From a virus (Duplodnaviria; Heunggongvirae; Uroviricota; Caudoviricetes), in IMG/VR virus record IMGVR_UViG_2579778842_000003: a stretch of 64,000 nucleotides of DNA. One strand, given 5' to 3'. Below the pieces are notes generated by a model that was given only the letters and a program-made list of their open reading frames with translations, was not told the origin of the DNA and ran no database searches. This document shows positions 22,040-26,016 of this stretch, in pieces. Position numbers and translations under genes: made by a program. Each line of letters starts with the position of its first letter. The stretch's first letter is position 1.

Positions 22040-22420
22040 CTACTCCGCAGAACCATACAATCTACGTAACGTGTCGGCGACAGAAGATACAGATATCTCT
22101 CCGGTCGCAGCCCCTACGGTAAGGTCTGCCAGTTCAGGTGAATCAAATACCTGCACCCCGTTACGGCGTAGAAATAACAGCGCACTGTTTAGCGCGGTAC
22201 GCTTATTGGCATCATTGAATATATGCCCTCTCGCTGTAGCCACCAGGTAGGTGGCGGAGACTTCGAAAAGGTCGGTGATCTCTTCGTAGGCAACTCTGGC
22301 CTGAACTCTCCCGATAATGGCCTCTGCCCTACCAGGATCTGACATTCCCGGCAGGCCGCCGTAGCGGTTTATATTCGCATCATGAAGCGCAATAAGTTCT
22401 TCCGGTGATATATGCCTCAT
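22040..22420 (-). CDS. doc: Doc toxin (Fic-fold kinase) of the Phd-Doc addiction module
   Basis: 126 aa, [25 protein letters not shown]...; matches P1 Doc as recalled; start overlaps the phd stop by 1 nt. Confidence 0.93.
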
Positions 22421-22641
22421 TATCGGTTAACCAGTTCCTTGTTGGTGGAGTCCAGGGTGTCAAACAGGGATGCAAATTCAGCATCCAGCGCCGCTTTTTT
22501 GTAGGCTTCGAAAGTAGCCTTGCTGACAATTACTGCTGGCTCACGGCCTCTGCGGGTGATTTCAACCTCTTCCCCGGCTTCAACATTGTTGAGCACTTCA
22601 GAAAGGTTGCCGCGCGCGGTACGGAAGTTAATGGATTGCAT
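22420..22641 (-). CDS. phd: Phd antitoxin
   Basis: 73 aa from [32 protein letters not shown]...; start set at the third codon of the listed ORF. Confidence 0.93.
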
Positions 22642-22713
22642 AAACACCTCGTGTACTCGTTATGTGTACACAATTATAAACTTCACAGGCATAAAGCACC
22701 AGCACTTTGCAGC

Positions 22714-23103
22714 TTAAATGACCGGACAATCATCAAACTCTCCACTCCGGGCATCATTGATGACATGAGTGATCACACCAAAAACAGCATTACTACCCGT
22801 GTAACCATCGTCATCTACTGGTAACGCCTCTTTCTTCCCGGTGCTTAAATCCTCCAGGTGCTGGCGCGGATACTTCCTGTATCTCTTTATGCGATATTCA
22901 CCCTCCATAGCGCACACAAGCAGAGAACCATCAACCGGAGTAAGCGAGGAATCAACCACCAGCAAAGCACCCTGCAATATTCCCTCACGGTGATGGCTAT
23001 CAGTTGCCCGCATGAAGTAGGTTGCTGATGGATGCCTGATTAGTTGCTGATCAAGAGAAATTCGGCTTTCAACATAATCCGCCGCAGGAGAAGGGAAGCC
23101 CAT
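22714..23103 (-). CDS. humD: HumD, UmuD-like S24 peptidase-family protein
   Basis: 129-aa ORF upstream of phd-doc; UmuD'-like architecture; position and size as P1 humD. Confidence 0.8.
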   Translation of the reverse strand: MGFPSPAADYVESRISLDQQLIRHPSATYFMRATDSHHREGILQGALLVVDSSLTPVDGSLLVCAMEGEYRIKRYRKYPRQHLEDLSTGKKEALPVDDDGYTGSNAVFGVITHVINDARSGEFDDCPVI

Positions 23104-23550
23104 AGCGTTTTCACCTCAATAATACTGTTCATTTATACAGTATACATTAAAGAGACACCTTTGGTGCAAACGCGTTACGTACATCAACCACCGCTGATGA
23201 TTTTGTGCTCTTTGCTACTATTCATCACCAACGGATCAGCGTAACCTCGTTGCCAATCAGTTAATAAGGAGATGCCGCAGCGACCGGATCATCAACAAGA
23301 AATTGTTGCTGAATTTTCCTCAAGGGATGAGATGAATCTCTTCTCATTAAAGCAGGAAGAAAGGGATCGCGTCGAAGTGTCTCCAACTCTCGACCACAAC
23401 CGGATGAACCTGGCCCAACTCGCCTAGTACAGCAAAGAATTAGAGATGTCTATTGCCCGACTTGAAAACGAAAAAGCCGCTATCCAAGTCCAGCACGAAG
23501 TAGTTCTGAACCGGATTAGAGAAATGCAAAACGATAACAGGGGATTTTGA

Positions 23551-23907
23551 ATGGCTAAAGTCGAGTACCATCGCGATCGCGGTAATTACCTGGAAATATA
23601 CGATCATGAATCTCTTAACGATATCAACGATGCGTTATATGAATACTGTGAAAAAACGAGCATCACAGATGCACCTGATGCATTTGTCGAGCTGCCGGTA
23701 TATCTCCGCGACATCTATGCAATACGAACACCGCCCGTATCGGTGATTCACATTGGCTATGTCCGCCTGTCCATCGAAGAAGATGAAGATCGTTATATCG
23801 TGCGCCACTATACATTGGACAGAAAAGAACTTCCTAATGAATGGAACATGAGTAATTTCTACAACGGTGAATATGGCTTAAAATCCGCTAATAATTTACG
23901 GTCATAA
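23551..23907 (+). CDS. hypothetical protein
   Basis: 118-aa ORF with plausible start context; no recognisable motif. Confidence 0.4.
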   Translation: MAKVEYHRDRGNYLEIYDHESLNDINDALYEYCEKTSITDAPDAFVELPVYLRDIYAIRTPPVSVIHIGYVRLSIEEDEDRYIVRHYTLDRKELPNEWNMSNFYNGEYGLKSANNLRS

Positions 23908-24769
23908 TCTATACAGGCATGTATAACAACAACGAGCCTATTAGCTGTCAACAACATTATTTTCTCAAATAAGAAAAAGCAGAAAACAAATTGTTTAAGA
24001 TCACAAATTGTGGCCTTGATGGAGGAGGGAGGCTTATTGGCTATGGCTAAAAATCAAATTAGACACTTCATGTTGCTGTAGCTCATCAAGATCCGAGGCC
24101 ACAAAACCTTTTCCGAAAAACTTCACAAGTAACTCACTAGCTGCATCATTGTCACCTATTACACGAAAGTCATACGGCAACGTCGCAAGTTGACGATGTA
24201 ATCCTGCTGAGAAAGTCGAATCTAACAGCGCCCAGAATTCCCACCGCAGGATAATACTCGCCTCTTAATACTGTATATATGTTGTTACGATATGTTTTTC
24301 TGTCTCTAAAAAAAGATGTTAATAGAATGCTAACCATTGAAGGGGATAAAAATATACAATTCCAACAAACGTTATTTTTAACAATTTTTTTCTTTGCGTT
24401 GACTTTCCCTGACACCTTGTCTGACCGAAGGTGCGCGAAAGCCACTTTTTCCTTCCTGAGTTATCCACAAAGTTATGCACTTGCAAGAGGGCCATTTTCT
24501 ACATATTGTGGTGGCTAACAGATGAAATGAATGTAGATTAATTGAAGATAAGGAGAAAATTTGAGATGCAATCATGACGTTAATAGATAGGGTCTGCATT
24601 ACAGACCCCACCCGCATCAAGGAATTAGCCGTTCCCTGATGTTTTTCCGAAAACATGTGCCGTAAGCTCACGTTAACGACTTTCATTCACCGAATCCAAC
24701 TATATAGGGGTTGGGTTTCTACGTCAACGTGAGCAAGTGCACCTTTACATTTGACAAGGAACCACCTGA

Positions 24770-24907
24770 ATGAACGCTTTTTTTCAGTTCCTGAGTGCAT
24801 TTTTAGATGCGCCTGTTATTAGCCAGATTCTGGCTATTATCCTCATCATCGTTTTGATTTTGCTTTTAAGGTCAGTAAAAAATGGAATTATGCACTGGCT
24901 TACTTAA
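24770..24907 (+). CDS. small hydrophobic peptide ORF (45 aa) in the AT-rich island; possible small membrane toxin-like peptide
   Basis: ATG at 24770 preceded by AAGGA; MNAFFQFLSAFLDAPVISQILAIILIIVLILLLRSVKNGIMHWLT; not in the ORF track because under 60 aa. Confidence 0.3.
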   Translation: MNAFFQFLSAFLDAPVISQILAIILIIVLILLLRSVKNGIMHWLT

Positions 24908-24982
24908 TGTTTCAGTGAAACATTAAAATATCCTTGATGAGGAAACAATCATTTTCTGTATGTGCTGGTGGGCACCTGTAGT

Positions 24983-25345
24983 TCAGCTTTCGTTGGCATT
25001 TAACTTCGTCTTTGCTTTCTCCACCAGCAACTTCCAGATGCCTATTTCATTAGCAGCCGCCTTGATGGCGGCATAAAAAGCATCTTGCTGATCGTAACGC
25101 TGGATCTGTTTTTTCAGTTTTGCCTCCACCAATTTAATTTCATTACGTGCTTTCTGAATCCGCATCACCGCCCGGTTACGTCTGTTCTTGTATAGCGTGT
25201 TAATCTCTGACAATTGCTTTAATTTACCAGCCTGACTGCGGATTATCGCCTCCCTGGCTTCTGCCGTGCGTCTCATCTGATCTCTTAAGAGTTCACCGTT
25301 TTCGATAATTCTTTCAAGGTGTTTGATGTGATCTGCAACTCTCAT
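24983..25345 (-). CDS. hypothetical coiled-coil protein
   Basis: 120-aa ORF; start of a run of tightly packed, often overlapping - strand ORFs. Confidence 0.5.
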   Translation of the reverse strand: MRVADHIKHLERIIENGELLRDQMRRTAEAREAIIRSQAGKLKQLSEINTLYKNRRNRAVMRIQKARNEIKLVEAKLKKQIQRYDQQDAFYAAIKAAANEIGIWKLLVEKAKTKLNANES

Positions 25346-26016
25346 ACTTCACCCTCGCTTGTATCACCAGCGTCCACCAACGACAATAAAGCCCTGGCCA
25401 TCTTATGAACCAACAGTGCATCAATAATGCCAAGCGTATGCCCCGGCTTAATGTTTAATGCTGCCTCAAGATGACACCTTTCCAGACCGCTTTTCTCGGC
25501 TTGTTTATGATGATATGGCGTAATAACGTCGCCCAAAACACGGCTAATTCTTTCTCGTAATTGCTGGGTGCCAGCACACTTGATCGCTGTATCGTGGAGA
25601 CGGTTAACCAGTTCGCGATAAACATGCGGTTTAATGCGGATACGTTCACCGGTGACGCCCTTTCCTGGCCCTGGCACCGAACTATCCGGAATATCCGGAT
25701 AGTTGCCAGCCTCGTAAGCTACCCGCAGCCAGTGCATGAATGTTTCAGTAGACACACAACCACAGTCCACATCGATTTTTCCGCGTTGCTGTTCCAGCCA
25801 CTGCTCAAAATTCAATCTACACGTATTACTTTCATGTTGCTCTTTTTGTCTTAAGGCCAGCACCTGTTGGGCCAGTTCCAGAACGATACCGGGTGACGCT
25901 AACCTCTCAAATTCCAATAAATAGTTTGCGTCAGGATGACAAGTAGCCTCGCCTGCAAAAAATACCAATTGCTGTAAGTATGCTGTCGTTAGAGTAGTCA
26001 TTTCTTTTTGCGCCAT
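25342..26016 (-). CDS. hypothetical protein
   Basis: 224-aa ORF overlapping the downstream start by 4 nt (coupled). Confidence 0.5.
   Translation of the reverse strand: MAQKEMTTLTTAYLQQLVFFAGEATCHPDANYLLEFERLASPGIVLELAQQVLALRQKEQHESNTCRLNFEQWLEQQRGKIDVDCGCVSTETFMHWLRVAYEAGNYPDIPDSSVPGPGKGVTGERIRIKPHVYRELVNRLHDTAIKCAGTQQLRERISRVLGDVITPYHHKQAEKSGLERCHLEAALNIKPGHTLGIIDALLVHKMARALLSLVDAGDTSEGEV

Follow-up and report, generated by a model that had tools for sequence, protein, structure and literature searches.

What, if anything, is encoded by the G+C-poor island at positions 23908 to 24982 of a 64,000-nucleotide (nt) stretch of viral DNA (IMG/VR record IMGVR_UViG_2579778842_000003; hereafter, the window) that belongs to a P1/P7-type punavirus, i.e., a phage-plasmid? 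The initial annotation had described this island as AT rich and largely noncoding, lacking any convincing long open reading frame (ORF) and carrying a single small one of 45 codons. Its composition is indeed unusual (38.9% G+C versus 48.0% for the whole window), with only 2.4% of the equal-sized windows being as G+C poor. Its longest ORFs (102, 91, 79, and 58 amino acids [aa]) overlap one another on both strands and correspond to unconserved frames annotated as upf91.x in phage P7 and upfM/N/O in phage P1. The label "largely noncoding" accordingly stands as far as long ORFs are concerned, but it overlooks a compact cassette in which the 45-codon frame (hence, ORF45) is placed behind a copy of the Escherichia coli nrdAB promoter. 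In our preferred reading of the sequence, the island is bipartite: positions 23908 to 24380 (~470 bp, on the left) are recombination debris, and the right ~600 bp would constitute one functional cassette. We regard it as plausible, but unproven, with a probability of roughly 40%, that this cassette is a type I toxin-antitoxin-like module.

The promoter copy occupies positions 24383 to 24499 of the plus strand, in the orientation of nrdA (rightward, aimed at ORF45), and corresponds to the upstream half of the host promoter from the ypaB-nrdA intergenic region. All 5426 complete E. coli genomes contain a segment with 94 to 95% identity to these 117 bp, which retain the upstream inverted repeat, the AT-rich tract, two DnaA boxes (24461 to 24469, TTATCCACA, a perfect match; 24473 to 24481, TTATGCACT, matching at 8 of 9 positions), and the −35 element TTGCAA (24481 to 24486). 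Judged from its sequence, the copy is derived from the host. The homology stops at 24499, before the −10 element, which in the window reads TATTGT (24504 to 24509) versus TATCTT in E. coli, with T1, A2, T3, and T6 kept and the same 17-nt spacer; a transcript from this promoter would start near 24516. The nrdA 5′ untranslated region (UTR) was not copied, the nrdA ATG of E. coli being located 124 nt past the end of the homology. Also outside the copied segment is the functional NrdR site (boxes 1 and 2), which lies downstream of the nrdAB promoter (PMC12176259); with the box sequences given in that work, neither box was found in the alignment of the window copy with the nrdAB region. In the host, DnaA-ATP is held to repress nrdAB (PMC2500167). 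The window copy thus differs from its source in lacking the NrdR boxes and the nrdA 5′ UTR and in being placed to drive a 45-aa peptide instead of ribonucleotide reductase. Among 60 loci from phages, plasmids, and viruses, comprising 25 distinct haplotypes, the DnaA boxes and the −35 element form a conserved island amid variable flanks. Of the 15 distinct sequences that span both boxes, only L051 departs, with a single T-to-C substitution at 24473, the first base of the second box, and the boxes and the −35 element are likewise unchanged in a divergent lineage of the cassette (see below). An older P1 record (M95666) already labels the segment "nrdA-like promoter" and "dnaA box," and the P1 annotation remarks that the segment resembles a stretch of E. 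coli DNA containing two DnaA boxes; a full-text literature search for "nrdA-like promoter" returned no match.

Comparable sites were encountered in other settings. The SSU5-like phage Cyrano (L007, positions 2655 to 2802) has the same nrdA-like promoter with DnaA boxes, a −35 element TTGCAT, and the −10 element TATCTT, as in E. coli; there, a strong bidirectional terminator (AAAAAGCCCAGTTGACTAGGCTGGGCTTTTT) follows ~60 nt past the promoter and the ORF45 module is absent, so that the Cyrano promoter could specify a candidate small RNA (sRNA) of ~80 nt driven by a captured host promoter. Adjacent DnaA boxes (TTATCCACA and TTATCCACT) are also found at positions 53498 to 53515 of the window, presumably in the plasmid replication origin region of a P1-type replicon. 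DnaA-box-like sites within ORF45 itself (24837 and 24888) are unconserved in the divergent lineage and were therefore taken as chance occurrences.

DNA searches recovered the segment from 229 plasmids of Escherichia, Salmonella, and Shigella and from 216 of the 5426 complete E. coli genomes (~4%), almost always on P1-like plasmids and in one copy per replicon; no second copy of the ORF45 module was found within the window. The copies fall into two lineages. The first is the P1/P7 type, with 92 to 100% identity within the type. The second is divergent (~77 to 81% identical) and is placed upstream of a type I restriction-modification operon, hsdM-hsdS, on an IncY P1-like plasmid and on SSU5-like plasmids. 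In two representatives of the latter (L009 and L010), the cassette spans positions 2501 to 2863 and hsdM and hsdS follow from 3400 onward, always ~540 bp downstream; in both the IncY and the SSU5-like contexts, the hsd operon takes the place of the pmgV-side genes. The module is thus kept in three contexts, namely, P7 type, P1 type, and upstream of hsdMS. Several searches for a third lineage recovered only the known ones: (i) word-indexed and exhaustive protein searches returned only copies and frameshifted or truncated variants of ORF45; (ii) a scan of 185,579 species-representative genomes with a back-translated pattern yielded no relative; (iii) the 53 loci recovered by a viral 20-mer scan all belonged to known lineages; (iv) a metagenome 19-mer scan gave 19 related loci of known lineages and 5 chance matches in unrelated AT-rich DNA; and (v) a six-frame tblastn search of plasmids returned the same 229 records.

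ORF45 lies exactly where the initial annotation had placed it (24770 to 24907, plus strand), with the Shine-Dalgarno (SD) sequence AAGGA at 24756 to 24760, 9 nt before the ATG. It encodes MNAFFQFLSAFLDAPVISQILAIILIIVLILLLRSVKNGIMHWLT, a predicted single-pass membrane peptide of 45 aa that is dominated, as had been proposed, by one hydrophobic helix (residues 15 to 33; mean Kyte-Doolittle value, 3.1), with a net charge of −1 at the N terminus and +2 at the C terminus. AT-rich DNA could yield a frame of this length by chance, and it is conservation that sets ORF45 apart. Every one of the 60 phage and viral loci compared carries it intact, as do 18 of 19 metagenome loci, and full-length tblastn matches were obtained in 228 of the 229 plasmids. 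Between the two lineages, it has accumulated 32 substitutions over 138 nt with no insertion or deletion and no change in its 45-codon length; 18 of the 45 residues differ, chiefly through I/V/L/F and K/R swaps, and the hydrophobic segment is kept in the divergent lineage. The Nei-Gojobori ratio of nonsynonymous to synonymous substitution rates (dN/dS) is 0.39 to 0.43, with a proportion of synonymous differences (pS) of ~0.40. In 20,000 runs of random mutation with the observed number of substitutions, the frame stayed open in 16%, amino acid conservation was at least as high as that observed in 2.3%, and helix hydrophobicity was at least as high in 1.6%. The SD core AGGA and the ATG are kept at similar spacing in both lineages, within a stretch where the 34 nt before the ATG are only 64 to 67% identical. 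These patterns suggest that ORF45 is probably a real gene, short of proof because its substitutions are spread over the codon positions as 11/8/13, with no third-position excess, and because the comparison covers a single evolutionary branch.

This assignment is at odds with the reference annotations of the same DNA. In P1, the right half of the island carries the small minus-strand frames upfM, upfN, and upfO ("unknown protein function") together with the predicted sigma-70 promoters PupfN, P1upfM, and P2upfM, and in P7 it carries four overlapping ORFs, upf91.3 to upf91.7. These frames lie on the strand opposite ORF45 and are not conserved: no upfM-like ORF occurs in the divergent lineage, and upfN keeps neither its start nor its frame, with the ATG of the longest upfN-frame ORF in the window missing from both P1 and the divergent lineage. 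The promoters P1upfM and P2upfM, which would be antisense to the 3′ end of ORF45, were set aside, being destroyed in the divergent lineage. ORF45 is itself unannotated in the P1 and P7 references, but it has been deposited elsewhere as a "hypothetical protein" (SJ46 J46_0085; RefSeq WP_000123562.1), and the NCBI annotation pipeline PGAP calls it in only about half of the records. Disrupted variants also exist in public data (L088 and the proteins P0001 to P0004); some are frameshifted or rejoined at the C terminus, with the tail ...MTPTY common to L088 and P0003, which belong to different lineages, and P0002 breaks off at residue 31 and continues into foreign sequence.

Between the captured promoter and ORF45 lies a leader of ~250 nt, the core of which (24547 to 24735, plus strand) is 90.5% identical between the lineages, versus 77% for ORF45 and 67 to 74% for the flanks; it is also better conserved than the synonymous sites of ORF45. 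From 24547 to just past the ORF45 stop codon, the block measures exactly 363 nt in every lineage. It opens just upstream of a consensus SD sequence, AAGGAG (24550 to 24555), which is followed by a 3-codon mini-ORF (ATGCAATCATGA) that in the divergent lineage consists of a bare start-stop (ATGTAA). In the window, the stop codon of the mini-ORF overlaps the ATG with which a 21-codon ORF opens (region 24550 to 24578). The leader ORFs of 21 and 25 codons were considered as genes and rejected, as they show no coding signature; about 9 nt changes in the former entail 6 aa changes, including two compensatory hairpin changes. Within the leader, on the minus strand, is a sigma-70 promoter (24699 to 24727; TTGACG at 24727 to 24722, a 17-nt spacer, and TATAGT at 24704 to 24699) that would fire leftward. 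It matches the consensus at 10 of 12 positions, is the best-scoring site of the region, and corresponds to the PupfN predicted in P1; its hexamers are invariant in all of the haplotypes, with two spacer positions varying. A TTGACA at 24751 to 24756 was also considered as a promoter and discarded, having no usable −10 element. The transcript from the minus-strand promoter would be antisense to the leader, and because no minus-strand ORF is conserved downstream of it, its product here would be a noncoding RNA complementary to the leader. The suggestion in the initial annotation that an antisense region could encode a regulatory RNA is therefore plausible, given an invariant and strong promoter so placed.

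Several secondary structures are predicted for these transcripts. The minus-strand segment from 24560 to 24692 has a predicted fold with z = −4.8, and the plus-strand leader one with z = −2.5. In the divergent lineage, a hairpin at 24590 to 24608 (GGGTCTG-CATTA-CAGACCC) has undergone one compensatory double change, from U-A to C-G. A 13-nt inverted repeat at 24666 to 24734, complementary at 12 of 13 positions, encloses an inner 10-bp hairpin; this structure is nearly invariant, and covariation consequently gives no test of it. A perfect 11-bp hairpin at 24904 to 24926 of the plus strand overlaps the ORF45 stop codon, at which point the divergent lineage also has a hairpin, albeit of partly different sequence. 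Between ORF45 and the pmgV homologue, a terminator-like hairpin at 24956 to 24981 (CTGTATGTGC-TGGTGG-GCACCTGTAG, then TTCAGCTTTCGTT) can be read from the plus strand, although it was not reported by a strict terminator scan. In a consensus structure, 99.8% of the cells pair, with two compensatory pairs and nine wobble-compatible single changes, this structure having been derived from the same alignment that was used to score it. The ORF45 SD sequence is predicted to be paired in all three of the lineages tested (unpaired probability of its GG, 0.00 to 0.13 versus an mRNA mean of 0.4). Bracketing the cassette in the hsd-linked lineage is a 17-bp complementarity between GCACACACAGGAAATGG and CCATTTTTTGTGTGTGC (L009, positions 2450 to 2466 with 2896 to 2912; the same in L010), which would join the 5′ and 3′ ends with −27.3 kcal/mol, a value reached by 0 of 5816 background windows; two of its pairs are G-U, and hence it is better in the plus-strand RNA than as DNA. 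As a separate observation, an imperfect 22-nt direct repeat (77% identical; 24493 to 24514, CATTTTCTACATATTGTGGTGG; 24950 to 24971, CATTTTCTGTATGTGCTGGTGG) brackets the cassette from the −10 element of the promoter to the terminator region and may be a trace of its assembly or movement.

These features can be arranged into the following type I-like scheme. The captured nrdAB promoter would start a plus-strand mRNA near 24516, comprising the conserved, structured leader and ORF45 and ending at the hairpins between 24904 and 24981. The translation start of ORF45 would be masked by local pairing, and the invariant promoter inside the leader would fire in the opposite direction, yielding an RNA complementary to the leader that may silence ORF45 through pairing and convergent transcription. 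The peptide itself would be a membrane-active small toxin or growth modulator, and the captured promoter could link its transcription to DnaA-ATP and replication status, free of NrdR.

A number of results weigh against this scheme. The peptide, although it has the size and single hydrophobic helix that led the initial annotation to liken it to type I toxins, matches no known type I toxin family: neither of its two variants gave a match below E = 0.01 in Pfam, NCBIfam, or PADLOC; profiles of Hok/Gef, Ldr, Ibs, TisB, ShoB, Fst, SymE, and other such families gave none; and the sole match in PHROGs is a marginal one to phrog_1184 (a 54-aa family of unknown function; E = 0.055). A search of both strands of 23000 to 25800 against Rfam (E ≤ 1) matched no antitoxin or sRNA family. 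The predicted antisense RNA has no evident canonical terminator and misses the ORF45 start region, its 5′ end being ~65 nt upstream of the SD sequence. When single-sequence minimum free energy structures were compared across the lineages, ~40 to 45% of the changed pairs stayed paired and ~55 to 60% broke on both strands; the global structure is thus unsupported, and the data suggest structure for a few helices only. Neither strand was favored by wobble-pair asymmetry or by alignment folding of both strands, and the 5′-3′ fold-back is weak and not significant in the window's own lineage and in P1. With only two lineages, which are effectively one evolutionary branch, the conservation statistics are weak, and the high identity of the leader could reflect recombination between coresident plasmids. 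Knockdowns of upfN and upfO in P1 had no lytic-growth phenotype (PMC10695390), an outcome that nonetheless fits all of the readings considered here; upfM was listed there as nonessential from an earlier deletion survey and was not itself knocked down. Finally, the minus-strand promoter in P1 could simply be what drives the gene hot during lysogeny; hot carries an annotated late promoter, yet its expression in lysogens has been reported (PMC7556043, citing Chikova and Schaaper 2007).

The last point leads to the alternative that survives best, namely, that ORF45 is a genuine but nontoxic small membrane protein under a DnaA-controlled promoter, acting as an accessory factor for a host or phage membrane protein, in exclusion, or in envelope physiology, with the minus-strand promoter belonging to another unit (hot in P1) and overlapping the leader only by accident of position. 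The evidence that ORF45 is a gene (its conservation, dN/dS, and presence in 228 of the 229 plasmids) serves this alternative equally well, and many single-helix peptides of ~30 to 50 aa in bacteria and phages are regulators rather than toxins. Furthermore, hot is downstream of the minus-strand promoter in every hot-carrying lineage (P1 and hsd linked), and expression of hot in lysogens has been reported, as cited above. Yet P7-type genomes retain this promoter, together with ORF45, although hot is gone, the leader is conserved more strongly than ORF45, and a predicted masked SD sequence behind a long leader would be unusual for a simple accessory gene. We therefore hold this alternative to be a serious but doubtful one.

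Less easily reconciled with the data, and in our estimate unlikely, is the possibility that ORF45 is untranslated and only the regulatory DNA or RNA is functional. The block would then be a sigma-70 promoter and 5′ UTR for hot or other leftward genes, modulated by the nrdA-like promoter through DnaA binding or convergent transcription, and the frame would have remained open by chance over a short divergence. That 16% of the random-mutation runs leave the frame open, that the codon positions show no third-position excess, that there are only two lineages, and that PGAP recognizes ORF45 in only about half of the records are all compatible with this possibility, as is the short terminated transcript predicted to follow the same promoter in Cyrano, where ORF45 is lacking. 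It accounts poorly, however, for the conservative nature of the amino acid changes and the preserved helix hydrophobicity (matched in 2.3 and 1.6% of the simulations, respectively), for the identical length of the frame with its SD sequence and start codon kept in a poorly conserved segment, and for the retention of ORF45 both in P7-type genomes that lack hot and in the hsd-linked contexts. That the whole island is a nonfunctional leftover at a recombination hot spot, conserved merely through recent ancestry and gene conversion among P1-like plasmids, is improbable: although the locus is the "highly variable region 8" of P1-like phage-plasmids (PMC9603915), its left half is demonstrably debris, and P7 tolerates an IS903 insertion there, the conservation is patterned, with the DnaA boxes, the −35 element, and the leader kept between variable flanks, and the module is retained in three genomic contexts.

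The left part, from 23908 to 24380, reads as a patchwork of truncated pieces. The initial annotation had pointed to a protein-like frame without a start codon on the minus strand, possibly a gene remnant, and such it is: a pseudogene of a Toprim/DNA primase-like protein (24034 to 24245, minus strand) preserves the C-terminal 66 codons and the stop. The translation of 24234 to 24037, with the stop at 24036 to 24034, is identical at 58 of 66 positions (88%; E = 4e-40) to residues 109 to 174 of an intact 174-aa homologue from phage PhiR41_1 (XSB42472.1), which in turn matches phrog_849 "DNA primase" (E = 9.5e-54); phrog_17952, also "DNA primase," was likewise matched for the primase-like gene. 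The window lacks the N-terminal 108 codons, start codon included, and all eight of the amino acid differences from the intact homologue are nonconservative, as expected of a decaying pseudogene. At the nucleotide level, 23953 to 24245 is 89 to 90% identical to CMS-2020a and PhiR41_1. The insertion point of IS903 in P7 lies inside this remnant (24162 to 24170; 9-bp target duplication, CACGAAAGT), with the window representing the uninterrupted state of the site. The adjoining fragment (24255 to 24380) is homologous to the region upstream of humD in Cyrano and contains a fossil LexA box (24269 to 24290): the left half (TACTGTAT, 24269 to 24276) is kept, and the right half has been lost through an 11-bp deletion relative to Cyrano, where the box upstream of humD is perfect and intact (TACTGTATACACATACAGTA).

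The working humD of the window (22714 to 23103, minus strand) is 1.2 kb from this fossil box; doc (22040 to 22420) and phd (22420 to 22647) likewise lie on the minus strand. Homologues of P7 upf94.2 and upf93.6, two plus-strand genes that end at 23907, border the island on the left, and on its right a pmgV homologue (24983 to 25345, minus strand), convergent with ORF45, opens the next operon. The island interval as a whole is 99.4% identical to that of P7, where it is split by IS903, and 99.2 to 99.3% identical to those of SJ46 and a gut-derived Punavirus record. The comparison with P1 at this position, which the initial annotation had suggested, is possible only in part, P1 having a counterpart of just the right half (24431 to 25100; 96% identity).

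The reference phage P1 gave the field phd/doc, among the founding toxin-antitoxin pairs. For this locus, P1 records had already labeled the nrdA-like promoter and its DnaA boxes, and ORF45 had already been deposited as a hypothetical protein. What is new is that the conserved coding strand is opposite that of the frames given in the P1 and P7 reference annotations, that the promoter, leader, antisense promoter, and peptide travel jointly, by the alignments, as one conserved cassette, and that the debris making up the left half of the island can be identified. If our reading is right, a conserved gene on the other strand would replace the nonconserved upf ORFs, correcting the P1/P7 reference annotation, and the promoter would offer a clear example of how a mobile element can capture host regulatory DNA and so read the replication state of its host. 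Should the peptide prove to be a toxin under antisense control, it would represent a new toxin family, present in the ~4% of complete E. coli genomes noted above, within a known kind of system having an unusual, host-derived control region; if ORF45 is instead merely an accessory membrane protein, the outcome would be a modest annotation fix. The most far-reaching version of the proposal is that the P1 family of phage-plasmids carries a further addiction or abortive module ~2 kb away from phd/doc, this one RNA controlled, in which a new membrane toxin, produced from the captured nrdAB promoter, reports the DnaA-ATP and replication initiation state free of NrdR and is held in check by an antisense RNA, with the P1 and P7 annotations being on the wrong strand; taken in full, we consider this quite unlikely.

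Set against known systems, ORF45 resembles the small single-pass membrane peptides of phages and bacteria in size, in its single helix, and in its positively charged C-terminal tail, but it is homologous to none of them beyond the weak match to PHROG 1184. The closest parallels to the cassette are hok/sok of plasmid R1 and tisB/istR-1 of E. coli. Unlike those loci, it has no evident antisense terminator and no demonstrated mok-like overlapping frame, and its peptide shows no sequence similarity to Hok, TisB, or other cataloged toxins. As in both loci, a hydrophobic single-helix peptide of <60 aa is preceded by an untranslated leader of ~250 nt with a predicted masked SD sequence, and a constitutive-looking promoter on the opposite strand, in or near the leader, would specify an RNA complementary to the part of the leader ahead of the toxin start, just as IstR-1 acts ~100 nt before the point where tisB begins. 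The cassette shares with such type I loci a residence on plasmids and prophages, and the 5′-3′ fold-back predicted in its hsd-linked relatives recalls that of the hok mRNA. Its promoter would have a counterpart in the stress- or status-responsive promoter of tisB, with the DnaA boxes taking, for ORF45, the place that LexA has for tisB.

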